Shown here: positions 50,739 through 63,823 of the stretch, in pieces | Position numbering within the stretch: the first letter of the stretch is position 1 | Layout of the letters: the number at the start of each line of letters is the position of its first letter | Source: a virus | DNA length: 64,000 nucleotides | Reading direction: 5' to 3' (one strand) | IMG/VR virus record: IMGVR_UViG_3300037486_000582 | Location: 1 to 64,000 of that record | Notes under the pieces: generated by a model | What the model was told of the DNA's origin: nothing | Database searches by the model: none | What the model saw: the letters and a program-made list of their open reading frames with translations, nothing else | Translations under genes and position numbers: made by a program

Positions 50739-51194
50739 TCAGACGGCGTCCCTGGGCATCGGAGCTCCGCCGGTCGCGCAGAGCACAACGTCCGTCGCCC
50801 CGGCCGCCACGTAGGCCGTGATACGGAACGCGACCAGGTGTCCGTCCACCGGAACCTGCGCGCTGGCGGCCAGCCCGGTCAAGCCACCGACCGACGTGAG
50901 CGTCTTCCAGCGCCGTCCGAGCGGAGCAGCGGCGTCCGGCGTCGCGACCATTGGCAGGACGTCGACGGACCCGCCGTCCACTGGTGCCCCGGTCGGGCCA
51001 CGGAAGTCGGCGATCAGCCTGACGCTCAGCCACTCTCGAGCATCGAGGATGACGACGTCGGGGCCGAGCTCACCCGCGTTCCTGTTGTCCGGTGTCCAGA
51101 GACCCGACACCGGAGCGTCCGGCGCGTTCCGCGGAGCCCGGACGTCTGTCTTCGCACTCGGACTGTAGAGCCTACGCTTCGTGGGAGCTGTCAT
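50739..51194 (-). CDS. Hypothetical protein
   Basis: 151 aa between portal and MuF genes. Confidence 0.6.
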   Translation of the reverse strand: MTAPTKRRLYSPSAKTDVRAPRNAPDAPVSGLWTPDNRNAGELGPDVVILDAREWLSVRLIADFRGPTGAPVDGGSVDVLPMVATPDAAAPLGRRWKTLTSVGGLTGLAASAQVPVDGHLVAFRITAYVAAGATDVVLCATGGAPMPRDAV

Positions 51195-53058
51195 CTGCGT
51201 CCTCCTCGTGCCCGAGCGGGTTCGAAGCCGCCCGAGCAGCCGCGGCGTCCAGTGCGGCCAGCGCGCTGTCGCCTTCCGTGTGCGTCCTGCGTCGGCCGAG
51301 GGCGAGCCCTTGGTGCGACAAGTTCACGAGGTCTTGCGCCTCGGCGACGTCGAGCCCGGCGACCGCCGGTGGCATGTCCTCCGGTGCGCCCTCCACCGGA
51401 GGGGCGAAGCCGGCGAGCGTGAGCTGGATCGGCTGCTTCGCCCACGGCAGGTCCAGCGGGTCGAGCTCGTGGCCGAGGATGTCGCTCGAAAGGTAGCGTG
51501 CTTCGTTCGGGGTGATTGCCCCGACCTTCGCCAGATCGAGGATGACAGCCGCCACCCGTTCCGGGTCGCGGGTCTGCGGCCCGAGCGAGCGGAAGGTCCA
51601 CATTCGGATGTCGAGCATCGGAAGGATGACCCTGTTCAGCCAGGAGTCGAACTCCTTCCGCTCGGGCTCGAACACCTGCTCGTCGGCAAAGCGCAAACTC
51701 GCGTCGGCCGTGGACTTGTTGAAGTCGCGCACGTCACCGCGGAGCAGCCGGGGCAGGCGGAAGGAGCTGCCGATCTTGTCCACGTTCCGCTCGTCGTACT
51801 TCTGGAACATGGCGTCGCCCTTCTGCACGTCGCCGAGGCGTTCGAACGTGAGCCGCGGGTGCTCGTGCGGCGACATCGGGTCGCCTTCGTCGTCGGCCTC
51901 GATGACCATGATCTTGTGGAAGTTCTCGCGCCCCTTGATGTGGTCGCGGATGAACGTCTCGATCCTGGTCACGCTCTCCGAGCTGAGCCGCCCGCCGGAC
52001 ACGAGCAGCGCCAGCGGCGGAATGGCCTTGTTGTCGAAGTAGGCGAAGTTGACCTCGTCCGACGCCCGGCTGCCGAGGACCGCGAGCAGGTTCCCGATCC
52101 AGCGCGGGACACCGTAGGGCTCGCCAGTCCTGTGAATGCGGAAGTGGACCATCTCGGTCGCCTGGTGCTCGCGACCGCGGGTCTGCTCCGCGAAGACCGC
52201 CAGGTTCGCATAGATGCGCCCAGTCTCTCTGGAGACGACCCGCGGGTCGCCAAACTGCTTGAACCAGATGATCTTTGAACCGACCGCCTGGACGTAGCGG
52301 CGGAAGAACTTCGGCTGGTAGATGACCTCCCAGCCAAGCCCGAGGTGGACGCGGTCGGGTACCATGACAGGAATCTCGTCCAGCGCGGTGCAGCGGACGT
52401 GTGTCGGCGGCACCCCAACGAAGCGACTCACCTCCCCGACGCGGTTCCGAAGGATCTCCCAGAAGCCGTTGCCGACGATCTCAAGGTCCTGTCTCGTGTG
52501 GCGGCGAAGCGTCTCGAAACTCCCGTCTGGGTAGACGCCTTCGAAGAACGAGTCGAGCCGCGCCTTCTCGAACCGCGCTCGGATGCGGAGTGCCTCGACG
52601 GTCTTCGCGACCACCTCGTCCGTCGGAAGGTACTGCTCTGGGTCCTTGACCCGGCTCGCCTGTGCCAGCACGTCCGCGTCGTCCGCCGCGTCTCGGAGGT
52701 CGTCGCTCGCTGCCGTCGATGCCTCCGCCGCGCGCACGCGCTCGACCCACATGGCGTCGCGGACCTTCTCCTCCGCCTCCTCGCCGAACAGGTCGAACCG
52801 AGCAGCGAAGCGGTAGCCGAGGCCGTCGATGTTGGTGACGTACGCCTGGACGTTCTGCGGAAGGGCGCTGCTGTTTTCCCACATCCGCAGAAGGTCGATC
52901 GGATTGTACGGCGGTTCGAGGACACCGGCCTCGCGGAAGATGGACTGAAGCTGGTCCGTGTCCTCGCGAATGGAGACCGGAGCGTGGACGGCTTGTCCGA
53001 GCAGCCGCGCCTTCAGCGTCGCGCGTGGTTCCTTCGGTTCTTCCTGTGCGTCGGCCAT
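51172..53058 (-). CDS. Portal protein (PBSX-like)
   Basis: GNGFWEI, YGVPRW, YFDNKAIP, FRLPRLLRG and ITPNEAR motifs. Confidence 0.9.
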   Translation of the reverse strand: MADAQEEPKEPRATLKARLLGQAVHAPVSIREDTDQLQSIFREAGVLEPPYNPIDLLRMWENSSALPQNVQAYVTNIDGLGYRFAARFDLFGEEAEEKVRDAMWVERVRAAEASTAASDDLRDAADDADVLAQASRVKDPEQYLPTDEVVAKTVEALRIRARFEKARLDSFFEGVYPDGSFETLRRHTRQDLEIVGNGFWEILRNRVGEVSRFVGVPPTHVRCTALDEIPVMVPDRVHLGLGWEVIYQPKFFRRYVQAVGSKIIWFKQFGDPRVVSRETGRIYANLAVFAEQTRGREHQATEMVHFRIHRTGEPYGVPRWIGNLLAVLGSRASDEVNFAYFDNKAIPPLALLVSGGRLSSESVTRIETFIRDHIKGRENFHKIMVIEADDEGDPMSPHEHPRLTFERLGDVQKGDAMFQKYDERNVDKIGSSFRLPRLLRGDVRDFNKSTADASLRFADEQVFEPERKEFDSWLNRVILPMLDIRMWTFRSLGPQTRDPERVAAVILDLAKVGAITPNEARYLSSDILGHELDPLDLPWAKQPIQLTLAGFAPPVEGAPEDMPPAVAGLDVAEAQDLVNLSHQGLALGRRRTHTEGDSALAALDAAAARAASNPLGHEEDADDSSHEA

Positions 53059-53837: not shown

Positions 53838-55424
53838 TCATCCGATGGCGCGAACTCCAGACGACGACGATGAAGACGCCCGCCGGCCGGTGTCGCGACG
53901 GAGTTTCCGCTCGTACATGCGCGCCGCTTCCCGCGCGATCCAGGAGGCCATGAGCCGGTCGCCGGTGTGACCTTGCGGGTCGTAGGCCAGCATGTCGTCG
54001 ATCCAGTCGGCGACGCCCCTGGCGACGCGCCGGGAACCGACTTCGCAGGGGATGAGCCACCGGGAAGCCGCCATCTCCGCGGCGAGGCTCTCGACGCCGT
54101 ACTCCGGGGACAGCTTGTTGCGGCCCGTGGTGAAAGCGCGGACGCGCATCCCAGGAGCGCGTTCCCTGACCCACTGGACGAGGAAGTCCTGAGCAGCGTT
54201 GTTCTCCACGACGACCGTCGAGCGGAAGCGTTCGTTCACCGAGACGACCCGGTCGATGATCTCCGGGCCGCTCCACCGCCCCGCCTGAACCTCCAGCACT
54301 TGGCGCATCCCATTTGGCCAGAGCAGCAGCGTGAACAAGGCGCTCTTGCCGGACCCCGGCCGTGCGCTGATCGCGAGGTCGACGCCGGTGATGGTCATGA
54401 AGCCGGCCGGCATCCCGCCCATCTCGAGCAACTCCTCCGTCAGACTCATCTCGGCGGCGAACTCGGGGTCGCGCTCCGCGATGTCTTGCAGACTGCTGTA
54501 CGTCGCGAACCCTTCGCCGAGCGCCAGGCACTGCTCGATCCACGACCGCTGGAACCGCGCGGTGCTCTCGTCGCGCGGCTGGCAGAGCATCTGACGAGAG
54601 AACTCGATCGGCCCGAGCACCTGGGTTCGGACGTGCTCGATCCGGTCCAGCGGCCACCGCTCCGGCCAGGCCAGCTTGCCGTCCTGGTCCAAGACGGGAA
54701 ACCGCATCGAGTGCCACCCCTGGCGCTCCAAGTTGTGGGCCATGTCCTTCGGGTGCCAAGCGTTCGTCAGGAGGCAGACCCACGCACCCTTCGCGAGCCG
54801 CGGGAAGGCGGAAGCGCGAATCCACTCCTCGATCTTGTCCCGCTGGTAGTTGGTGCGTGTGTTGTTCTCGGTCAGGACGTCGTCGATGATGAGCCCGTCG
54901 AGCCGCGCGCCCTGGATGGTTCCTCCCTCCGGCGAGTAGGCTTGCAGGGACGGGTCCTTGATGCCGCCCGGACGCTCCACTTCCAACGAAACGTCGGTCC
55001 AGAGCGTGCCGCGACGAAGGTCTGGGAAGACCTGGTGGAGTATCTGGTTCTCGATGATGTGCTGCTGCGCGGTGCGGATGATCTTCTTTGCCTGGCTCTG
55101 CGTCGCGGACAGAACTGCGTACCGCCGACGCTGGTCCTTCCCGAGCAGCCAGAGGACGCGGGCGATGGCGAGCTGCTGTGTCTTTCCGCTCTCGGGGAAC
55201 GCCCAGATGACCACGTTGCGGTAGCGCTCGATGGCGTAGTGCCAGGCTGCCTGGAAGGGCTTCACCTGGATGTGGTTCCCCGTCTCCTCGTCCCGGAGGA
55301 CCATCTCGCAGAACGCGGGACAGTCCCGCCGCGCCAGACGGAGCATCGCCGCCCACGCAAGCTGCGCCTGCTCACCGATACCATCCGTCGGCGCGTCGCG
55401 CGCCACGCCCGTTCCAATGCCCAT
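53838..55424 (-). CDS. terL: Terminase large subunit
   Basis: Walker A FPESGKT, Walker B LIIDD, nuclease motifs ITGVDLA, VENNAAQ and GDRLMA; start could be 55424, 55436 or 55466. Confidence 0.92.
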   Translation of the reverse strand: MGIGTGVARDAPTDGIGEQAQLAWAAMLRLARRDCPAFCEMVLRDEETGNHIQVKPFQAAWHYAIERYRNVVIWAFPESGKTQQLAIARVLWLLGKDQRRRYAVLSATQSQAKKIIRTAQQHIIENQILHQVFPDLRRGTLWTDVSLEVERPGGIKDPSLQAYSPEGGTIQGARLDGLIIDDVLTENNTRTNYQRDKIEEWIRASAFPRLAKGAWVCLLTNAWHPKDMAHNLERQGWHSMRFPVLDQDGKLAWPERWPLDRIEHVRTQVLGPIEFSRQMLCQPRDESTARFQRSWIEQCLALGEGFATYSSLQDIAERDPEFAAEMSLTEELLEMGGMPAGFMTITGVDLAISARPGSGKSALFTLLLWPNGMRQVLEVQAGRWSGPEIIDRVVSVNERFRSTVVVENNAAQDFLVQWVRERAPGMRVRAFTTGRNKLSPEYGVESLAAEMAASRWLIPCEVGSRRVARGVADWIDDMLAYDPQGHTGDRLMASWIAREAARMYERKLRRDTGRRASSSSSSGVRAIG

Positions 55425-55431
55425 CGGCCCA

Positions 55432-55442
55432 AGCATACCGCA
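55432..55442 (-). promoter_or_regulatory. Putative late-promoter -10 element TGCGGTATGCT, 7 nt before the terL ATG
   Basis: Identical to 14505..14515 with the same spacing. Confidence 0.5.
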
Positions 55443-55500
55443 CTGTGACGCGCGCCGCGACCGCAACGGAAGCGGCGGACGAGCAACGTCCTACAGCCTC

Positions 55501-55630
55501 CGATAAATCGTCCGGGGGATCACACACTATAATCCACTGGCATTATTGGAGAAACACGGACGTCCTCCAGTAATCGTCCTGGGATGTCTTGCAGGATACC
55601 GCCGGGTTTCCTATAAAGGGTGGTGGAGGC
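55501..55630 (+). promoter_or_regulatory. Early promoter cassette copy 1 (sigma70-type)
   Basis: TTGCAG (55589)-17 bp-TATAAA (55612), then GGTGGTGGAGG; two upstream ATCGTCCnGGG boxes; two further copies in the window. Confidence 0.8.
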
Positions 55631-55636
55631 GACGCG

Positions 55637-56038
55637 ATGGGAAAGAAAGACGGGACGCGGGTAGCGAGAGTGGTCGACGCGGGGCACCCGTTGCACGGCC
55701 AGCGGTTCGTGGTCCAGCAGTGGAACAACGGTGCCTGGTACTGCTGGGGCCAGGTAACGTCGTTCAAGAACGGCCACCGCCGCCACGAGGGGTCCTGGCG
55801 TTTCCAGGAGGCGCAGGTCGAAGTCGTCGAGGTCGCGGACTCGGGCGTGGCGCTCTCGATGTCCCTGTTCGAGCAGTGCCGCCAAGACCTCCGCCGCCGC
55901 GGCGCGATGATCTACCGGAACACGATCGTGAAGCCGCCGCACAGCGAGCGGTTTGTGAAGATGGCGCGGGAGCTTGGAATGGCTCTCGAGTCCCTGACGA
56001 CCGATGACGAGCGAACCATAAACGAGATGCTGGAGTAG
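55637..56038 (+). CDS. Hypothetical early protein
   Basis: Start moved to ATG 55637 after the cassette SD. Confidence 0.7.
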   Translation: MGKKDGTRVARVVDAGHPLHGQRFVVQQWNNGAWYCWGQVTSFKNGHRRHEGSWRFQEAQVEVVEVADSGVALSMSLFEQCRQDLRRRGAMIYRNTIVKPPHSERFVKMARELGMALESLTTDDERTINEMLE

Positions 56039-56047
56039 GAGACGAAC

Positions 56048-56926
56048 ATGACGAAGGCGAACGAGAACACGAAGGCGATCAAGGTCACGGCGAAGGAGCT
56101 CGCGATCCTTCAGGGCATCGTGAGGAGCGAGTTCCAAGACTTCGGGGCCGGCGGCCCCGTCGGCCAGTACGTCTGGTCATGGAGTGCGACGTCGAACGCG
56201 GGCGATGCGATCAAGAGCCAGCGCAGCGCGGGCGGTGTTGTGGCATCCCTGGTCAAGAAGGGTCTCGCGACCCAGATGGACGAAGGTCGGGACGCGTGCC
56301 TCGCGGTGACCGCGCTCGGCTTTGCCGCCTACCAGGCCAACCTCGCGGTGACCGAGCCCGCCCCGGTTGCCGAGCCCGCCCCGGTTGCCGAGCCCGCCCC
56401 GGTTGCCGAGCCCACCGCCGAGGAGCTGGACGTGATCCGCCGCGCCGTCGAGGACCTCGCCCTGGATGAGCCCGGCACGAGCCCCGTCGACGTCCCGCTG
56501 TATGCGACGATGACCAGCGCGCTCGCGGCGTCCCTGGCCACGAAGGGCTTGGCCGTCGTGACCGAGGTGCGCGCCCGGGACGCCTTCATGGCGATTACCC
56601 AGCGCGGGTACGACGCCGTCGCGGCGACGGTGCGCGTTGCCGCCGCGGTCCCCGCCGAGGAGCCGGCCCCGGTCGAGGTCAAGAGCTATGCCGAGCGCCT
56701 GGCCGCGATCCTCGGGGCCGGCTGCGCCGTGAACACGAACGGTACCCTTCGCGTCGGCGACGCCGCGCTCGCCAAGCTCGAGGAGCTTCTGCCCGGTCAC
56801 GACTACGCGACCAACTTCCCAGAGAGCGGGCTCCTGGAGACCGGGATCAAGATCAACAAGAACAGCATCACCGTCTACCCGATCCGGATCGGAACCTTCC
56901 TCGTCGCGCTCGGGGACCTCTGCTGA
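56048..56926 (+). CDS. Early protein with two winged-helix-like repeats and a C-terminal domain shared with 63094..63687
   Basis: Repeated TAxEL...ASLxxKGLA...xT..G; EPAPVA linker; AVNTNGTLRVG domain. Confidence 0.7.
   Translation: MTKANENTKAIKVTAKELAILQGIVRSEFQDFGAGGPVGQYVWSWSATSNAGDAIKSQRSAGGVVASLVKKGLATQMDEGRDACLAVTALGFAAYQANLAVTEPAPVAEPAPVAEPAPVAEPTAEELDVIRRAVEDLALDEPGTSPVDVPLYATMTSALAASLATKGLAVVTEVRARDAFMAITQRGYDAVAATVRVAAAVPAEEPAPVEVKSYAERLAAILGAGCAVNTNGTLRVGDAALAKLEELLPGHDYATNFPESGLLETGIKINKNSITVYPIRIGTFLVALGDLC
56352..56413 (+). repeat. In-frame 18-bp tandem repeat (~3.4 copies) encoding EPAPVA
   Basis: CCGAGCCCGCCCCGGTTG three times plus a partial copy. Confidence 0.9.
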
Positions 56927-57208
56927 CCGGCCGCGGCGCTCCTCCCTTTCGCCTCCCAGACCACACCCAGACGCCCCGCCGCCCGACCCGGGCCGGCGTC
57001 CGTCACGCCGACCGAGATGAGCACGGCTGCCGCCCCCAGCGCCGAGCACGACCAACCAGGTCTAGTCGGGGTCGTCCGCCCCCAGCCTCGGAGCGACATG
57101 GCCGCACCAGGCGACCTTGGCGCTGGGGGCCACCGCCCTAGCTCGAGCCGGCCAGTATCGCTTGGCGTGGCCAAGCTGCTCCGGTGCGGACGAGTCGCGT
57201 CGGCGGCC

Positions 57209-58228
57209 CTACTGCCACCCGAGGGCTTGGACCAGAAGGGGTGCCACGACCGCCGGCGAGTGCGCAGCCAGCGTGCGCCCCGCCCCGTCGGCGAGCACGG
57301 CCGTGTCGGAGGCAGAAGGCGGCGAGGACAGGAGCCGGGCGAGCGCCTCCGACGACCCGACCGAAAGGCAGTTGACGCCCGGGGCAAGCTCGCCACCCGG
57401 GCGCAGCCAGCCGTCGTGTACGACCAGAGCCGCGCCCGCGTCCCAGGCCTCAAAGAACGTGTACTGCGTCCCTCCGCCGTCGTCTCGGATGGTGCTCATG
57501 TCGACGACGTACTCGGCCTGCCCCGCGATGAGAAGGGGAGCGTCGGCCGTCTTCGGAAACCGCCCGCGGTAGTACCGCGCCTCCCAGCCCGGGCAAGCCT
57601 TCTCGAGCTTGTGGAAGGCGTACAGCCTGTTGACTGCGCCGTAGATGTGGCAGCGGCCGCGGTCGCCCGGCGGCAGCGCGTCGAAGGCTGGGACGACAAG
57701 GTGCGTCCCCTTGTCGAAGTCGACCCTGGACAGGGTAACCGCCCGCTCGGACCGCGGGTGCTGGCTGCTCACCGCCCGGCGGACGTAGGGGTGTGGAACG
57801 AAGGTAACCCGACTGACACCTCGGCGCCGGACGTTCTCCACGTTCGTCGGCCGGATGACCACGACGCGGCGGCGGTGCCGCTCGATGCACTCCATGAGCG
57901 GCGGGGTCATCTCGGTCGGGTCGTGGAGGATGATGTCGGCCCCGGCACGGAGCAGCGCCTCCGTTGCCTCGGCGTGCGTCCGCCAGTACGAACAGGTGAT
58001 GAGTCCCTGTCCCGCCGCCTTCAGGTCGCGGAGCATCGTGTCGAGCGACGTGGAGAAGGCACGGACGCCGTGACTCCACGGCTTGTCGCCTCGCGCGTCC
58101 CGCTTGGCGAGTCGGTAGAGCATGGGGCAGTGGCCGGTGCGCTCGAGCGCAAGGGCAAGGTGGGCCGTGTAGGACACGAAGCCGCCGAACGCCACGTCGG
58201 TCAGGTAGAACAGGGGCGCGACCGTCAC
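57209..58228 (-). CDS. GT-B fold glycosyltransferase, putative DNA-modifying
   Basis: Start moved to GTG 58228; GGFVSYTAHL, ILHD, SRVDFDKG and DGGGTQYTFFEA motifs. Confidence 0.75.
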   Translation of the reverse strand: MTVAPLFYLTDVAFGGFVSYTAHLALALERTGHCPMLYRLAKRDARGDKPWSHGVRAFSTSLDTMLRDLKAAGQGLITCSYWRTHAEATEALLRAGADIILHDPTEMTPPLMECIERHRRRVVVIRPTNVENVRRRGVSRVTFVPHPYVRRAVSSQHPRSERAVTLSRVDFDKGTHLVVPAFDALPPGDRGRCHIYGAVNRLYAFHKLEKACPGWEARYYRGRFPKTADAPLLIAGQAEYVVDMSTIRDDGGGTQYTFFEAWDAGAALVVHDGWLRPGGELAPGVNCLSVGSSEALARLLSSPPSASDTAVLADGAGRTLAAHSPAVVAPLLVQALGWQ

Positions 58229-58239
58229 GGAACCCTCCC

Positions 58240-59511
58240 CTACGCCCGCTCGGCGTTCCAGTAGTAGATCAAGTCGCCGTTCTCGTCCTTGCCCTCCGGC
58301 CGGATGACGCCTTCGAAGTAGCGGTATGGGGAGCGCCCGCGGTTCGGATTGTTCCAGAGCCAGTGCAGGAGGTCGTACATGGACTGGTGCCAGATCTTCG
58401 ACGCGCCTTCCACCGTGCCCCAGTTGAGGACGCGGGCGCGGATGTTCTTGAGCAGCCTCAAGTCCTTCTCGAAGTCGCTCCAACGGACTGAGCCGTTTCT
58501 GCGAGCCAGGACGAGCGCCTCGGTGAACTGGCCTCGGCTGTAGTTCCAGGTCGGGGGCAACCCGCAGCAGGAGCCGTTCGCGCAGCGCTCCTTGAAGTGG
58601 GCGTCCGAGACGTAGAAGCGCAAGCCGACCTCCTTGCACAGCTCCTCCATCCGGTCGATGACGGGCCGCTTCACGTTCCGGTTGAGCCGCATGTAACCGC
58701 GCATCGCCGAGTACCGCTTGTAGAAGGCGTACAGGTCGAAGCCGGCGAGCTTCGACATCTCGTGGAAGTGGAGCCGCCCGCCCGGGCTGCGCTCCTCCAT
58801 GCAGAAGTACTCGGTGCTGAGCGCCGTCGCCCCGGCACTGGCCGCGTCACGGATGAGTTGCTCGTAGGTCGCGTCGCTGATCCCAGGGATGAAGGGGCGT
58901 AGCCGAAGGGTCACGCCACCCTTGTTCAGCTTGGCGTACTTCTCCATCGCCCGGAGGCGCTCCATTGGGCTCGGCACACCCTTCTCGACCTTCCGGGCGA
59001 GTTCCTGGTCGCCCGTGACGATCGAGATCTTCATGTTCCAGTTGTCCTGACCTCGGAAGATGTCCGTGTACCGCTCGTCGTCGAGCCACCAGGTCCCCTT
59101 CGTGCTGAAGCAGATGGGGTAGTCGAGGTCGCGCCAGAACCGGAGCAGCTCCAACCCAACGCCGTACCGCTTCTCGAACGGGCAGAACGGGTCGGACAAC
59201 CCGCCCCACTGAAGGACCTTCCGCGCCCGGATGAAGTCGGTGAAGCGATGGTCCGTGGTCGGGTCGAGCCACAGCCGCATGACCCGGTCGACGTTGACGG
59301 GGACGGCCTCGTGGCTCCAATACTTGTCCTTGCACTTCCCGACCCCGCGGGAGAACTGCGAGAAGCAGTACAGGCAGAAGTACCCGCACACGCTGTACTG
59401 GTCGAAGGTGACCGGCATCGAGCAGTCGGCGACCTCCGCGGAGCAGCGCGGCGAATCGTAGAACCGCTGAAGCCGTGCCTTCGGCCGGCCGTCACTCGTT
59501 TCCGCTGCCAT
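58240..59511 (-). CDS. Radical SAM protein (spore photoproduct lyase-like)
   Basis: Start moved to ATG 59511; CGYFCLYC (CxxxCxxC), GGLSDPF, STKG, LRLRPFIPG and SCCG motifs. Confidence 0.85.
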   Translation of the reverse strand: MAAETSDGRPKARLQRFYDSPRCSAEVADCSMPVTFDQYSVCGYFCLYCFSQFSRGVGKCKDKYWSHEAVPVNVDRVMRLWLDPTTDHRFTDFIRARKVLQWGGLSDPFCPFEKRYGVGLELLRFWRDLDYPICFSTKGTWWLDDERYTDIFRGQDNWNMKISIVTGDQELARKVEKGVPSPMERLRAMEKYAKLNKGGVTLRLRPFIPGISDATYEQLIRDAASAGATALSTEYFCMEERSPGGRLHFHEMSKLAGFDLYAFYKRYSAMRGYMRLNRNVKRPVIDRMEELCKEVGLRFYVSDAHFKERCANGSCCGLPPTWNYSRGQFTEALVLARRNGSVRWSDFEKDLRLLKNIRARVLNWGTVEGASKIWHQSMYDLLHWLWNNPNRGRSPYRYFEGVIRPEGKDENGDLIYYWNAERA

Positions 59512-60253
59512 GCTGCGTCCCAGCGCCACGCCCGGCGACCTCGTCGGCCATCCGCTGAAGCTCCTGCACAGGGTAGATGATGCGGTTCGTGCGGAAGGGC
59601 ACGCCGAAGCACCTCTCCAGCCACGTCCGCTCCGCCTCGCCCTTGAAGACGATGATGAGCCGTTCGCTCTGGAGTGAGTCGTCCTCGGCATCGAGCGGCG
59701 GAAGCGGGTCCGGGCGGAGCCCGGAGTCCTGCGTCCGAGACAGCCGACCATAGTCGATGCCTCCGGGCGCGTTGGGCTGGTCGGGCACCTGGAAGGTGAC
59801 CGGGGCGAGCAACTCGTCGATGTTCAGGTCCGGGATGCGGGTGCTCTCGATGATCGCCTGGACCTCGTCCTCGCTCATCCCCATCCCGCTGAAGAACGTG
59901 GTCTCGGGGTTCCAGTCGGCATAGCGGCTGTTGAGCTGGAGCAGCTTCGCGGCTGCGTCTTGACGGTCCTTCGCCCGGACCTCGACGTAGACGATGGGCG
60001 GGATGGTCCAGCCTTCCTGCTCCAGCGACCGCAGCGCGGCACACGTCTGGTGTCCGTCGAGGATCAGCGGCGAGCCCTCCTCGTCGCGCCACACGAACTT
60101 CGGCACGAACTGGCCGTAGCTCGTGAGACTGGACTTCAGCTTGGCGAGCGCCTCCTCGTCCAGCGGCTTCTTCAGGTCGCCCTGGAAGTCGCGGAGTTCC
60201 GTGTACGGAATGGTCGGTAGGCTGTGTGGGTTGTCGATCTGCAGCGTAGGCAT
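59492..60253 (-). CDS. ParB/Srx-like N-terminal domain protein
   Basis: KLKSSLTSYGQFVP and ILDGHQT motifs; acidic linker. Confidence 0.8.
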   Translation of the reverse strand: MPTLQIDNPHSLPTIPYTELRDFQGDLKKPLDEEALAKLKSSLTSYGQFVPKFVWRDEEGSPLILDGHQTCAALRSLEQEGWTIPPIVYVEVRAKDRQDAAAKLLQLNSRYADWNPETTFFSGMGMSEDEVQAIIESTRIPDLNIDELLAPVTFQVPDQPNAPGGIDYGRLSRTQDSGLRPDPLPPLDAEDDSLQSERLIIVFKGEAERTWLERCFGVPFRTNRIIYPVQELQRMADEVAGRGAGTQHGSGNE

Positions 60254-60332
60254 GGGCTCTGTTCCTTCCCCTTATCCGCCCTCGCGGGCGGGAACGGGGT
60301 TCATCATAGAACAGGAAGCGCGGGCGGGGAAG

Positions 60333-60596
60333 CTAGGCGGTGAAGGTCTGGAAGGAGCAGGCGGGGCGGCTGGAGTCGACGCGGAAGCCTTCCGCGCCGT
60401 ACTGCGCGCACTGCCACCACCCGGTCAGTGCCGAGTTGCGGCGAAGCGAAGCGCCGCACTGAGGGCAGCACCCAGTCGCCACGACCGTCTGAGCCTCGGC
60501 CTGGAGCCGGGCGATGTACGCGGCGTGGCACTTGTTGCAGCGAGTCGCGTACCGGCTCATCACACGTCCACAGGCACAACGATTCCTGGTTGCCAT
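60333..60596 (-). CDS. Small zinc-finger protein
   Basis: CAC, CNKC and CPQC motifs; SD GGAGG. Confidence 0.65.
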   Translation of the reverse strand: MATRNRCACGRVMSRYATRCNKCHAAYIARLQAEAQTVVATGCCPQCGASLRRNSALTGWWQCAQYGAEGFRVDSSRPACSFQTFTA

Positions 60597-60597
60597 C

Positions 60598-61008
60598 TCA
60601 GACCTCCTCGTCCATTCCCTGTTCGCGCTTCTGCTCGTCGGTCATCGCCGCCGCGCCGCAGGCGCAGCAGACCTCGCCGTCCCACCAGCGTTCGCAGTGC
60701 GTATCGCCCGGCCGGGCAGGGCACCGCTCCTCGGGCTCCCACGCGCTGTCCGGGTCGTCGTCCGCGGCCGCCGCCGCGTCAGCCTCGGCGGCGGTCTTCT
60801 GGGCGTGCGGCCCGTCGGCCTCGAGCGGCAGGCAGTCGGTGAAGAGGGCGAGCAGATCGCCGCTGACGACCAGGTGGCCGTCGGCGTCCACGCTCGCGTC
60901 GCGGTCCAACTCGGCAATGTCGGCGGGAGCGTCGGTGTCGCATCCGACGATCTCTGCCACGCATGCGATCTCCCTCGGGTCCGTCACGGTCAGCTCGTTT
61001 CGCGTCAT
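60598..61008 (-). CDS. Acidic hypothetical early protein
   Basis: Start moved to ATG 61008 after cassette copy 2. Confidence 0.7.
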   Translation of the reverse strand: MTRNELTVTDPREIACVAEIVGCDTDAPADIAELDRDASVDADGHLVVSGDLLALFTDCLPLEADGPHAQKTAAEADAAAAADDDPDSAWEPEERCPARPGDTHCERWWDGEVCCACGAAAMTDEQKREQGMDEEV

Positions 61009-61011
61009 CTT

Positions 61012-61139
61012 CAGCCTCCACCACCCTTTATAGGAAACCCGCGGGTTTCCCACAACACATCCCGGGACGATTATCTGGAGGCTTGCCAGTTCGCCCTGTG
61101 TTTCCGCAGGATTATTAGGAGTGATCCCCCGGACGATTT
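61012..61139 (-). promoter_or_regulatory. Early promoter cassette copy 2
   Basis: TTGTGG (61055)-17 bp-TATAAA (61032); perfect palindrome GGAAACCCGCGGGTTTCC at 61033..61050. Confidence 0.8.
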
Positions 61140-61175
61140 CTGGATGCGCACCGGAGCCGCGCGACGTGGAGGAAG

Positions 61176-62528
61176 TCAGACGGTGGGGAGCGGGGTCACG
61201 GCCACGTCCTCGACGATGACCGCCTGAAGCTCGCGGCGCGATCCCGCCGTGAAGCACCGCCCGTCAGACAGCGTGGCGGAGAAGGCGCCGTCGTTCAGCG
61301 CCCAGGAGCCGATGACCGCCTTCGTGGCGTCGTCGGTGACGTCTCCGTCGCGGGACAGGATGGCCCAGAACCCAGCCGGCTTCGACGACGTGCCGCGGGT
61401 CAGCTTCTCACCGTCCCGGACGTTGAGCCCGAGCAGCCGCGCCAGCGCAGCCAGCGCCGGACCGGTCACGTTCACGCTGACGACACCGGCCGTCGCGCCG
61501 GTGCCGAGCGCCCCGGCGACCGCGGCGAGCAACGCGGCGGTGTCGACCAGGCCACCCATCGGGTTCAGGATGACGACGGCGCCGTCGCGCGCCAGCTCGC
61601 CGGAGGCGTTCATGGCGGCGACGATCTGCTCGAACCCAGCCCGCTGGACCTTGGAAGCCACACCAACGAGCCGCGCGAGCTCCGAGCCCGGCCGGCCCCG
61701 GCCGTCCGCGAGAACGAGAGCCATCCTGTCGCAGACGCCTGCGCTGCGGAGGGCTGCCGCTGCAGCCGAGGCCTCGGCCGGAGCGACGCCGTTCGTCGCG
61801 GGCTCCGGCGCCTTCTTCGGCTTGGCCGCGGGCGCGGCGACGGGTTCGGCCTTCGGGGTCCGCGCCTTCCCGGTCCGGCGCTTCGCGACCGTGGCGCCCA
61901 GGGTGGCCTGGACGGCGGGCGGCTCGTCCGCCTCGAGCGCGATGGGCTGGCCGGCCTCCTCGCGCATGAACGAGAGCGCCTCGGGCGAAGGGGCGTCCGC
62001 CGCGGGCTTGCCGCACCGGATGCAGAAGCCGTCCGCGTCCCGGTTGTGGCTCTGGTCGTCGCAGAAGGCGCAGAGGTCGATGGCGGGCGGCTCGGTGGCG
62101 ACGGGCACCAGCACGCCGGCGTGCTCGGCCTTCTGTGCGGCGGTCGTGACCACGAGCGCCCAGCTCACGCGAGGGACGCGCGTCGCGCGGGCGACGAGCC
62201 CTTCGGCCTCCATCTGCTCGAGCGCGTAGCGGATGCGATGCCCGGGAACAGCTGCCATGAGCGACTCCCCGGCGGTGTGGGCCACGGTCGCGGTCGGCAT
62301 CGGGGCTTCGGCCCGGCTCAGCACGACGGCGATGGCGTTGCGGATCGCGGTGGTGTCGATCTTCTGGGTTCCCTGCGTCATGGTCCTAGCCTCCCTCTCG
62401 CAACCGCCCGTGGCGGCCAGCTCGGCGGCGGTCCCGTCGCCGCCAGTTGCCTCATTGAGCGAAGCCGCGACCATCGCAGCCTCGTTGCTCTCGAACTCGG
62501 TCCCTGTCCCGAAGCGGCTCACGGTCAC
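61176..62528 (-). CDS. Early protein with winged-helix-like segments and a zinc ribbon
   Basis: IRYALEQMEAEGLV and CAFC...CIRC motifs; start is GTG 62528 (overlap) or ATG 62381 (SD GGAGG). Confidence 0.6.
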   Translation of the reverse strand: MTVSRFGTGTEFESNEAAMVAASLNEATGGDGTAAELAATGGCEREARTMTQGTQKIDTTAIRNAIAVVLSRAEAPMPTATVAHTAGESLMAAVPGHRIRYALEQMEAEGLVARATRVPRVSWALVVTTAAQKAEHAGVLVPVATEPPAIDLCAFCDDQSHNRDADGFCIRCGKPAADAPSPEALSFMREEAGQPIALEADEPPAVQATLGATVAKRRTGKARTPKAEPVAAPAAKPKKAPEPATNGVAPAEASAAAAALRSAGVCDRMALVLADGRGRPGSELARLVGVASKVQRAGFEQIVAAMNASGELARDGAVVILNPMGGLVDTAALLAAVAGALGTGATAGVVSVNVTGPALAALARLLGLNVRDGEKLTRGTSSKPAGFWAILSRDGDVTDDATKAVIGSWALNDGAFSATLSDGRCFTAGSRRELQAVIVEDVAVTPLPTV

Positions 62529-63064
62529 TTCCCCGCCCCGACGATGGCGCGGATCGCCGCGAGAATCGCGGTCGCCTGCCACTCCTCCACGTCCATGTCG
62601 ACCAGGACGGCGAGCTGGCCGGTGCCCTTCCGCGCGACCGCCCGGGCTGTCGAGGTCGCGGACGCCGTCTCGTTGATCCGCGCCGCGACCTGGAGCCCCG
62701 CCGCCTCGCGGCCGTCGCGCTCGGCCCGCCTCCGCGCCGCGGCCAGCTCGGCCCGGGCGTAGGCGCCGATCGCTTCGACGATCTTCGCGACGTTGAGCCC
62801 GGTCTTGCCCTCGGGGAACTGCCGGACGTCCCCGTGAGCGCCCAGCTTCGCGCGGACCTTGCCGTTGGGGCTGGAGTAGAGCGCCCCGCCCGAGTACTCC
62901 AGGCCGACCTCGAACGGGACGCGCTGGCCGTTCACGACCAGGTACAGTCCCTTGTCCTCGACGCTCGCCTCCGCCGCCGTGAGCGCCGCGACGATCTCGG
63001 CCCGTGCCGCCGCCGCCTTCGCCAGCCCCGCCTCGGTCCTCTGCTGCCTCGTGATGGTGTTCAT
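62525..63064 (-). CDS. Hypothetical early protein
   Basis: Start moved to ATG 63064 (SD GGAGGA). Confidence 0.65.
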   Translation of the reverse strand: MNTITRQQRTEAGLAKAAAARAEIVAALTAAEASVEDKGLYLVVNGQRVPFEVGLEYSGGALYSSPNGKVRAKLGAHGDVRQFPEGKTGLNVAKIVEAIGAYARAELAAARRRAERDGREAAGLQVAARINETASATSTARAVARKGTGQLAVLVDMDVEEWQATAILAAIRAIVGAGK

Positions 63065-63093
63065 GGTGTCCTCCTGTTCCTCTCTTGCCTTGC

Positions 63094-63687
63094 CTACCAG
63101 CACTCCTCGGGGTCCAGCTCCGTCGTCGACTCGCCCGTGGAGCGCGGCCCGATGTAGTCGCCGTAGAAGTGATCGCCGTTGGCCGGCTTCACGGTGATGA
63201 CCGTCCGGCGGTTCCAGTACTCGCGGCGGTCCTCGATCGACACGATGATGCCGTCCTGCTCGATGTCGCTCTTGAACCCGACCAGGTCGCCGACGCCCAC
63301 GACGCGCGCCCCGCGGTCGATGATGACGGTCGGACCGGTCGAGGCGGCGGGCGTCGCCTTCGCGCCCGGGAACGCCTTCGCGGTCGTCTTCGGCGCCTTC
63401 GGAACGGAGAAGCCCGGGGCGGGCGTCTCGGAGCGGATCACGACCGGGGCGTCCTTCATGGCGAGCGCGGCGACGTAGGGGAACGAGGTCGGGTCGATGG
63501 TGACGCTGTTGGTGTTCACGCGCACGCCGACGTAGTCGGCATAGCCCGGGGCGAGCTCGGCCAGGCGCGCGAGCGCCGCGTTGCCGACCCGGAGGGTGCC
63601 GTTCGTGTTCACGGCTGTCCCGCTCGCTCCCAGGAGTTCAGCCAGAACCGCCGCCGCCTTCGCCGTCTTCTCGTTTCGCTTCGCCAT
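63094..63687 (-). CDS. Early protein with N-terminal AVNTNGTLRVG domain and SH3-like C-terminus
   Basis: First gene after cassette copy 3; VGVGDLVGFKSDIEQDGII motif. Confidence 0.7.
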   Translation of the reverse strand: MAKRNEKTAKAAAVLAELLGASGTAVNTNGTLRVGNAALARLAELAPGYADYVGVRVNTNSVTIDPTSFPYVAALAMKDAPVVIRSETPAPGFSVPKAPKTTAKAFPGAKATPAASTGPTVIIDRGARVVGVGDLVGFKSDIEQDGIIVSIEDRREYWNRRTVITVKPANGDHFYGDYIGPRSTGESTTELDPEECW

Positions 63688-63691
63688 TCTC

Positions 63692-63823
63692 AGCCTCCAC
63701 CACCATTTATAGGAAACCCGCCGGTTTCCCGCAAGACATCCGGGGCCGATTGTTGGAACCGCCCTGGTTTCGCAAATGCTTTCGGCAACTTGTGTGGGTG
63801 ATCCCCAGGACGATTTATCGGAG
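63692..63823 (-). promoter_or_regulatory. Early promoter cassette copy 3
   Basis: TTGCGG (63734)-17 bp-TATAAA (63711), then GGTGGTGGAGG; near-palindromic spacer. Confidence 0.8.

Follow-up and report, generated by a model that had tools for sequence, protein, structure and literature searches.

A stretch of viral DNA of 64,000 nucleotides (hereafter the window), corresponding to the first 64 kb of the single 108,577-bp IMG/VR record IMGVR_UViG_3300037486_000582, contains a module of three genes coding for a ParB-like protein (gene A), a radical SAM (S-adenosylmethionine) enzyme (gene B) and a GT-B glycosyltransferase (gene C). We propose, with a probability that we put at roughly 55%, that this module carries out post-replicative DNA hypermodification, doing without oxygen what the ParB-dependent thymine dioxygenase does and then glycosylating the product. 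In a more specific form, for which we consider the odds to be even, gene B, whose product resembles spore photoproduct lyase (SPL), and its ParB-like partner would be the first radical SAM writer of a primary DNA base modification, that is, an O2-free analogue of TET/JBP enzymes converting thymine into 5-hydroxymethyluracil (5hmU) in phages of anaerobes. ParB-like proteins were recently reported to activate cognate 5mYOX enzymes, which convert T into 5hmU in DNA after replication, and the ParB-5mYOX pairs to be accompanied by P-loop kinases, AADTs and glycosyltransferases (O'Toole et al., PNAS 2026; PMC13229309). While ParB-dependent thymine hypermodification is thus a known system, the enzyme chemistry at the core of the module described here is potentially new. 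We know of no route to hydroxymethylated pyrimidines in DNA other than a post-replicative O2-dependent Fe(II)/2-oxoglutarate dioxygenase or a pre-replicative ThyA-like hydroxymethylase, and post-replicative thymine hypermodification in phages of strict anaerobes has had no explanation so far. If our proposal is correct, it would introduce a new enzyme chemistry on DNA, in the form of a radical SAM "writer", and would explain a family of 2391 metagenomic protein matches, 332 viral contigs and 47 genome loci, methanogen assemblies included. It would also bear on restriction and CRISPR evasion, on host range in gut phage therapy and on sequencing biases, and might provide an anaerobic tool to install 5hmU site-selectively.

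Genes and folds of the module

Frame analysis of G+C content at third codon positions (GC3) combined with start-codon inspection reduced the many overlapping open reading frames (ORFs) of region 57209-60253 to three genes (Table 1). The start of gene B overlaps the end of gene A by 20 nt, and the GTG start codon of gene C lies 11 nt past the stop codon of gene B. Because of this overlap, and of this short gap with its GGGGAGGG ribosome-binding site, genes A, B and C are translationally coupled. An earlier note on the window, made from its sequence, had described three co-oriented, overlapping or closely spaced genes and had assigned them to the ParB-like, radical SAM and glycosyltransferase families. 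The arrangement was borne out by the gene calls, and each assignment was verified by profiles, by the CX3CX2C motif and by AlphaFold2 (AF2) folds. The genome that carries the module has a CheckV completeness of 100% and a G+C content of 68%, and nearly all of its genes are located on the minus strand.

Gene B belongs to the radical SAM superfamily, of which it bears the [4Fe-4S]-binding CX3CX2C motif (C42/C46/C49), invariant across 25 homologues. Additional invariant cysteines are found at C30, C237, C315 and C316, the last two forming a CC pair, and C310 adds to them in close relatives. The AF2 model of the protein (pLDDT 88) adopts the partial TIM-barrel fold of radical SAM enzymes, with Z scores of 13-19 against SPL, PFL-AE, viperin, RlmN and others. 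Using VIA-align, the best structural match was SPL (4fhg; Z 19.4, root mean square deviation of 3.1 Å over 261 residues), which aligned along its whole chain, the next fold reaching a Z score of 16.1; Foldseek also matched SPL, at 1e-6. Residues ~11-303 constitute an SPL-like core, and residues ~304-423 form a Cys-rich C-terminal extension specific to the family. Gene B thus shares with SPL (4fhc/4fhg) the radical SAM partial TIM-barrel, and thymine-methyl radical chemistry is plausible in both, but it differs from SPL in sequence (13-18% identity), in its ~120-aa extra C-terminal domain with invariant cysteines, and in its context, which points to modification instead of repair. At the sequence level, the protein scored 22.2 bits against PF04055 (cut-off 29.5) and weakly matched (1e-15) the PA0069/Rv2578c models of NCBIfam, NF033668 and NF038135, with scores of 57.4 for a cut-off of 360 and 50.3 for a cut-off of 430. 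Judged from these scores, the PA0069/Rv2578c families are distant relatives of gene B and not its own families. No SPL model of Pfam or NCBIfam matched gene B, and its family profile found no match among PDB sequences, SPL included, at E<=1.

The AF2 model of gene C (pLDDT 95.8, pTM 0.93) has a GT-B fold, with two Rossmann domains, a Gly-rich loop in the N-terminal half and an acidic motif in the C-terminal half, and gave at least 500 Foldseek matches to GT-B enzymes. HepE, GlgM and MshA came first at ~1e-11, and the matches included the DNA-bound T4 alpha-glucosyltransferase (1y6f, TMq 0.72). Invariant motifs comprise an N-terminal GG, HD(PTE), R..D..K and GGGTQY..E, and invariant residues include G15, G16, H102, D103, R168, D170, K173 and E260; the score against Pfam PF13524 (22.2) falls just below the cut-off of 25. 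Gene C resembles the 5mYOX-associated GT-B DNA glycosyltransferases (bioRxiv 10.1101/2023.12.21.572611) and the T4 alpha- and beta-glucosyltransferases by its fold and by its linkage to hydroxymethylpyrimidine enzymes, ParB and terminase. Unlike them, it is GT4-like and closest to HepE, GlgM and MshA, and its activity on DNA is a prediction. We therefore refer to gene C as a predicted GT4-like DNA glycosyltransferase, its role on DNA being read from gene context.

Gene A was recognized by PHROG ParB-like families (1.8e-6 to 1e-5, the former for phrog_723) and by a hidden Markov model (HMM) built from the ParB cluster found next to relatives of gene B (1.4e-10). It had no match in Pfam, and a representative of that cluster matched PF02195 at 7e-4, under the cut-off. 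In alignments, a ParB/Srx-like domain at the N-terminus is joined through a linker to a small domain at the C-terminus, and no helix-turn-helix (HTH) is recognizable; ParBs that activate 5mYOX were reported to be built alike (PMC13229309). The N-terminal domain is 38% identical over 95 aa (E 5e-13) to the 5mYOX-linked ParB of L087 (loci are labelled L001-L080 for the radical SAM family and L083-L162 for the glycosyltransferase family, L081 and L082 being the window genome beyond 64 kb). Gene A and the ParBs linked to radical SAM genes have in common a C-terminal motif that can be written approximately as R-hIhV-aromatic ... E ... hG ... hY ... EL (window 59492-59700). The C-terminal domain of ParBs linked to radical SAM genes (L001, L008, L032, L075) is unlike that of ParBs linked to 5mYOX (L086-L088, L109, L122), and gene A combines an N-terminal domain of the 5mYOX type with a C-terminal domain of the radical SAM type. 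The C-terminal domain of these ParBs may set partner specificity.

The radical SAM family and the 5mYOX position

A protein search with gene B returned 2391 matches, those listed being ~410-420 aa long and 53-61% identical, and an alignment-based scan detected the family in 332 IMG/VR contigs. The enzyme is ~55% identical across contigs whose G+C content ranges from 28 to 64%. The family was also found in 47 GTDB genome loci, the carriers of which are nearly all strict anaerobes living in gut, rumen and digesters and include Prevotella/Segatella copri, Bacteroidales, Clostridia, Victivallales, Methanobrevibacter and Thermotogota. Strain HDE04 of Segatella copri, whose chromosome is complete, encodes one member in a prophage region (NZ_CP152346.1, ~1.932-1.950 Mb) with the gene order ParB, ParB, kinase, radical SAM enzyme, TerS and TerL. 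A tblastn search with gene B against 50,697 phage records (INPHARED, E<=10) yielded no more than two matches, weak and partial, both to unnamed or uncultured records, and blastn and tblastn with the three genes on these records found no cultured phage with this radical SAM enzyme or this glycosyltransferase.

Gene neighbourhoods, the survey of which the earlier note had proposed as a check, were counted using clean family HMMs in the best 80 of ~330 IMG/VR contigs per family, most loci being covered within ±8 kb. A ParB-like gene accompanied the radical SAM gene in 61/80 viral loci and in 39 of the 47 genome loci. The other neighbours were a P-loop kinase (44/80), an AADT-like protein (31/80), a short family consisting mostly of TET-associated glycosyltransferases (TAGTs; 27/80), GNAT (25/80), SAM synthetase (23/80) and a cytidylyltransferase cluster. 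PF18724 was matched by 14 of 17 AADT-like members, the profile of which had no sequence match in the PDB, and PF20691 by 13 of 20 members of the short family, one further TAGT being located in L072. The genes coding for TerS and TerL are almost always directly downstream of the radical SAM gene. This company (ParB, kinase, AADT, TAGT, GNAT and cytidylyltransferase) matches the one reported for ParB-dependent 5mYOX enzymes (PMC13229309), the partners of the radical SAM enzyme being enzymes that consume 5hmU. On the contrary, 5mYOX, ThyA-like and HMUDK_hel genes neighboured it in 0/80 viral loci, 5mYOX in 0/47 genome loci, and no radical SAM gene of this family was found beside any of the three in the 80 + 80 + 47 loci of the two viral surveys and the genome survey.

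Fifty-two radical SAM loci extend at least 4 kb upstream. They display several alternative tailoring sets and have only ParB and the radical SAM gene in common, some loci bearing these two genes without any known tailoring gene. Such differing sets around a pair whose radical SAM member is ~55% identical fit a common first step. SAM synthetase (MetK) was confined to radical SAM loci (23/80 versus 0/80 for glycosyltransferase loci), which fits bulk stoichiometric use of SAM and suggests that phage MetK may boost the supply of SAM for a stoichiometric radical SAM reaction.

The family of gene C, present in 320 IMG/VR contigs, provides a view of the same locus from the other side. The dominant gene order there is ParB, a 291-aa Tet_JBP protein (5mYOX), the glycosyltransferase, TerS and TerL, with 5mYOX in 41/80 and ParB in 38/80 loci, and other loci pair the glycosyltransferase with a ThyA-like gene, HMUDK_hel or a radical SAM enzyme with a SPASM domain (rSAM-SPASM). 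In the window, L091, L092 and L100, the order is ParB, radical SAM enzyme and glycosyltransferase, which puts the radical SAM enzyme where 5mYOX lies in the dominant order. In L008, the nearest phage judging from TerL and portal, ParB and the radical SAM gene are followed by Glyco_trans_1_2, a different GT-B-like protein. A clade of the glycosyltransferase tree (support 89) unites gene C and the radical SAM-linked L091 with the 5mYOX-linked L086, L087 and L088. Since the flanking ParB and glycosyltransferase are mutually closest while the middle gene differs, these loci point to an in situ non-orthologous displacement, in which either the radical SAM enzyme took the place of 5mYOX or 5mYOX that of the radical SAM enzyme. 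The module is similar to clusters of ParB-dependent 5mYOX (TET/JBP clade C1) by its ParB devoid of HTH, its terminase-proximal position and the downstream enzymes of its family (GT-B, TAGT, P-loop kinase, AADT). It differs from them in that it has, in place of the O2-dependent Fe(II)/2-oxoglutarate dioxygenase, a radical SAM enzyme that is SPL-like and unrelated to it, and in that its 5hmU product is predicted.

The earlier note had seen neither a TET/JBP dioxygenase nor a hydroxymethylase in the window and had suggested a search of the rest of the genome for TET or thymidylate-synthase-like genes. Their absence extends to the complete 108,577 bp, in which no Tet_JBP (PF12851), ThyA-like (PF00303), ThyX, AADT or C5-methyltransferase gene was found, so that no conventional hydroxylase is recognized elsewhere. 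Custom HMMs, 5mYOX included, gave no match in six frames at E<=1, and kinase and AADT were likewise absent. Five other viral genomes bearing the radical SAM gene, 96-100% complete, contain neither PF12851 nor PF00303. Beyond 64 kb, the window genome has two more radical SAM genes. One codes for an rSAM-SPASM protein (E 1.9e-107) of a family found near the glycosyltransferase, often adjacent to it, in 18/80 loci; the other codes for a B12-binding enzyme, a homologue of which adjoins the ParB and radical SAM genes in L075. Both probably belong to this pathway, as distal members.

In some loci, a second, short radical SAM paralogue (~280-290 aa) adjoins the main radical SAM gene (Table 1), and one of these paralogues weakly matches the SPL model of Pfam. 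An apparent co-occurrence of the radical SAM enzyme and 5mYOX in L099, L101 and L130 proved to be false: it was caused by the short family, which is mostly made up of TAGTs with six short radical SAM paralogues, and was resolved by alignment and clean HMMs.

Proposed mechanism and alternative explanations

The simplest reading of these data is that the product of the module would be 5hmU, or a thymine methyl group activated in an equivalent manner, glycosylated by the GT-B enzyme. We infer the following steps and the identity of the substrate base from gene content, folds and conserved residues. The ParB-like protein, through its N-terminal domain of nucleotide-binding type, would activate the radical SAM enzyme or target it to duplex phage DNA, as ParB does for 5mYOX. 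Cleavage of SAM would generate a 5'-deoxyadenosyl radical able to take a hydrogen from the C5-methyl group of thymine, and the resulting allylic thymine radical would be the one that SPL handles in its last step. In SPL, Cys140 is the hydrogen donor and Tyr96/Tyr98 provide a radical relay. In the module, the radical would undergo a one-electron oxidation, possibly via a second Fe-S site held by C30, C237, C315 and C316, and water would capture the oxidized species to yield 5hmU with no involvement of O2. The GT-B enzyme would then move a sugar from a nucleotide-sugar onto the hydroxyl group, giving a glycosyl-5hmU similar to base J, and rSAM-SPASM would probably tailor the sugar further. Such a modification could serve in restriction evasion.

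Several observations are consistent with this interpretation. The fold of gene B is that of SPL, the classic DNA radical SAM enzyme acting on the thymine methyl, which counts in favour of the proposal. Replacement of an O2-dependent enzyme by a radical SAM enzyme is a familiar pattern, exemplified by HemN and HemF. YhcC and MnmC are reported to provide another such case (PMC13228596). The idea put forward in the earlier note, that the radical SAM enzyme may create the acceptor group without oxygen for subsequent glycosylation, is likewise supported by the replacement of 5mYOX in its position, by the lack of any co-occurrence with 5mYOX or ThyA-like genes and by the anaerobic carriers. A literature search for a radical SAM enzyme in the position or role of 5mYOX found none, Iyer et al. 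2013 lying outside its coverage.

Other considerations weigh against the proposal. To our knowledge, a radical SAM enzyme that hydroxylates DNA is without precedent. Both the electron acceptor and the auxiliary cluster have been guessed from conserved cysteines. M6 gp53, which is the one characterized SPL-like radical SAM enzyme of a phage, acts as an isomerase in tailoring and does not catalyse a first step (PMC8989533). Gene A is a diverged ParB-like protein: its motif, DGHQT, lacks the Arg that relatives have in this GxxR-type motif, and its grouping with the ParBs of L087 and L088 in a tree has to be read cautiously because of long branches. The Pfam Tet_JBP model is weak on phage 5mYOX (29.9 bits for the representative), and the genome-wide absence of acceptor-making genes was established in six genomes, neighbour counts otherwise coming from a limited sample of contigs and short flanks. 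The anaerobic rationale comes from the carriers among the GTDB genomes and would be a presumption for the host of this phage of 68% G+C. Finally, the evidence is entirely computational for every member of the module.

The example of gp53 leads to the strongest rival explanation, which we nevertheless regard as unlikely, namely that gene B codes for a tailoring enzyme: a gp53-like isomerase, an enzyme doing under anaerobiosis the work of PaMx11's FAD-dependent lyase, or a sugar remodeller, the acceptor coming from an unrecognized source. M6 gp53, an N-alpha-GlyT isomerase (NAR 2021, PMC8989533) flanked by aGPT-Pplase and a P-loop kinase, isomerizes an amino acid that is already installed. Like gene B, it is an SPL-like radical SAM enzyme of a phage, from a type of thymidine hypermodification cluster that also holds an amino-acid transferase and a kinase, and many relatives of gene B adjoin a kinase, an AADT-like protein and GNAT. 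An anaerobic stand-in for a flavoenzyme would have a parallel in YhcC, which under anaerobiosis reportedly takes over from an FAD oxidase acting on cmnm5U, a chemically equivalent substrate (PMC13228596). However, the 5hmU of M6 is supplied by a ThyA-like enzyme before replication, and no known-type acceptor-making gene exists in the six genomes bearing the radical SAM gene, all 96-100% complete. Neither AADT nor kinase is present in the window, L091, L092, L100 and L008, and a single conserved radical SAM enzyme accompanies mutually exclusive tailoring sets. The tight pairing with ParB resembles 5mYOX and not gp53, which has no such partner. Gene B does not qualify as a gp53-type enzyme either, a type recognized by similarity to gp53 and by adjacency to aGPT-Pplase, kinase and a PLP decarboxylase, given that the INPHARED search above (tblastn, E<=10) found no similarity to isolated phages and that the window genome lacks kinase and AADT.

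Improbable as well, in our view, is a different primary modification, in which ParB and the radical SAM enzyme would write at another position or on another base, or would form a C-C adduct or a thio or methyl group, with the glycosyltransferase working on another acceptor. The chemistry of radical SAM enzymes is highly diverse and 5hmU is a predicted product of the module; the Cys-rich C-terminal extension is unique to the family and missing from SPL, and in some loci ParB and the radical SAM gene stand without a known tailoring gene. The partners tell otherwise: kinase, AADT-like protein, TAGT and the glycosyltransferases tied to 5mYOX, ThyA-like or HMUDK genes all use 5-hydroxymethylpyrimidine (PMC13229309).

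We give still less credit to targets other than DNA, whereby the glycosyltransferase would decorate the virion or the cell envelope, the radical SAM enzyme would act on a protein or a small molecule and ParB would take part in packaging. The usual substrates of GT4 enzymes are lipids and sugars, actinophage glycosyltransferases that glycosylate capsid proteins are known, and the module adjoins TerS and TerL. Against this, the family of gene C is embedded in ParB-5mYOX, ThyA-like and HMUDK contexts, and the fold of gene B is that of a DNA enzyme. Moreover, ParB-5mYOX pairs of like architecture were shown experimentally to oxidize T in DNA (PMC13229309). The idea of a true SPL or a similar DNA-repair enzyme, although SPL is the best structural match of gene B and some sources label its relatives "DNA repair photolyase", is scarcely credible in view of the failure of profiles in either direction to link the family to SPL (E<=1 in the PDB; Pfam and NCBIfam), the extra 120-aa Cys-rich domain, carriers that are phages of gut and rumen without exposure to ultraviolet light, and a linkage to ParB, glycosyltransferases and kinases that has no repair logic.

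Flanking genes and a repeated cassette

Table 1. Positions of the module and of the surrounding features (window or genome numbering; locus numbering for the short paralogues)
Feature	Position	Strand	Remarks
Gene A, ParB-like, 253 aa	59492-60253	-	ATG preceded by AAGGGGAAGGAA
Gene B, radical SAM enzyme, 423 aa	58240-59511	-	N-terminus common to the 90%-identical P0001
Gene C, GT-B glycosyltransferase, 339 aa	57209-58228	-	GTG start, GGGGAGGG ribosome-binding site
Small Cys-rich protein, 76 aa	60333-60563	-	Paired CxxC, zinc-ribbon-like; directly upstream of the ParB gene and co-oriented; GC3 frame analysis
136-aa protein	60598-61008	-	GC3 frame analysis; preceded by the repeated cassette
70-nt cassette	61003-61072	-	Perfect inverted repeat GGAAACCCGCGGGTTTCC, TATAAA box, ribosome-binding site
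Second cassette copy	63682-63751		Repeat search, family D2
Plus-strand gene pair	55574-56926	+	Between gene C and terL, convergent to the module
Tandem repeats in the 292-aa gene	56346-56416		Three 18-nt repeats
Large terminase (TerL)	53838-55406		Beyond the convergent pair
Portal	51172-53058		After TerL
Giant ORF, 1877 aa	43460-49093	-	Head module, after portal and MuF
rSAM-SPASM gene	67987-69084	-	Genome beyond the window
B12-binding radical SAM gene	84046-85161	+	Genome beyond the window
Short radical SAM paralogues	L032:6528-7397, L026:4512-5345, L040:9326-10195, L044:4903-5757, L021:5610-6443, L050:341-1186

The earlier note had placed the three genes downstream of an early promoter. This part of its description was not confirmed, since a scan of 55400-61200 for sigma-70-like promoters returned no site. 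The nearest promoter- or operator-like repeat is the 70-nt cassette, which is separated from the downstream ParB gene by two small genes. Its two copies are 87% identical, and each directly precedes a minus-strand gene. The cassette is probably a phage-specific promoter/operator, and its copy upstream of the module may be that of the ParB, radical SAM and glycosyltransferase unit, the first gene of which is probably that of the 136-aa protein; this copy also scored as terminator-like in a simple scan. Family searches gave no match for the 76-aa and 136-aa proteins.

The module lies upstream of the packaging genes, from which it is separated by two convergent plus-strand genes. Comparison by hhalign of the window proteins encoded at 55574-56038, 56048-56926 and 60333-63612 with all accessory-gene profiles gave no probability above 40%, and for this reason the proteins of 55574-56926 and 60333-63612 were not counted as members of the pathway. 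The plus-strand pair codes for a 122-155-aa protein with a weak match to AAA_33 and for a 292-aa protein whose tandem repeats encode a Pro/Ala/Glu-rich stretch, and these two genes look like an inserted moron pair. Farther downstream, the portal protein is at most 34% identical to portals of Rhizobium and Rhodobacter phages, and the giant ORF follows in the head module.

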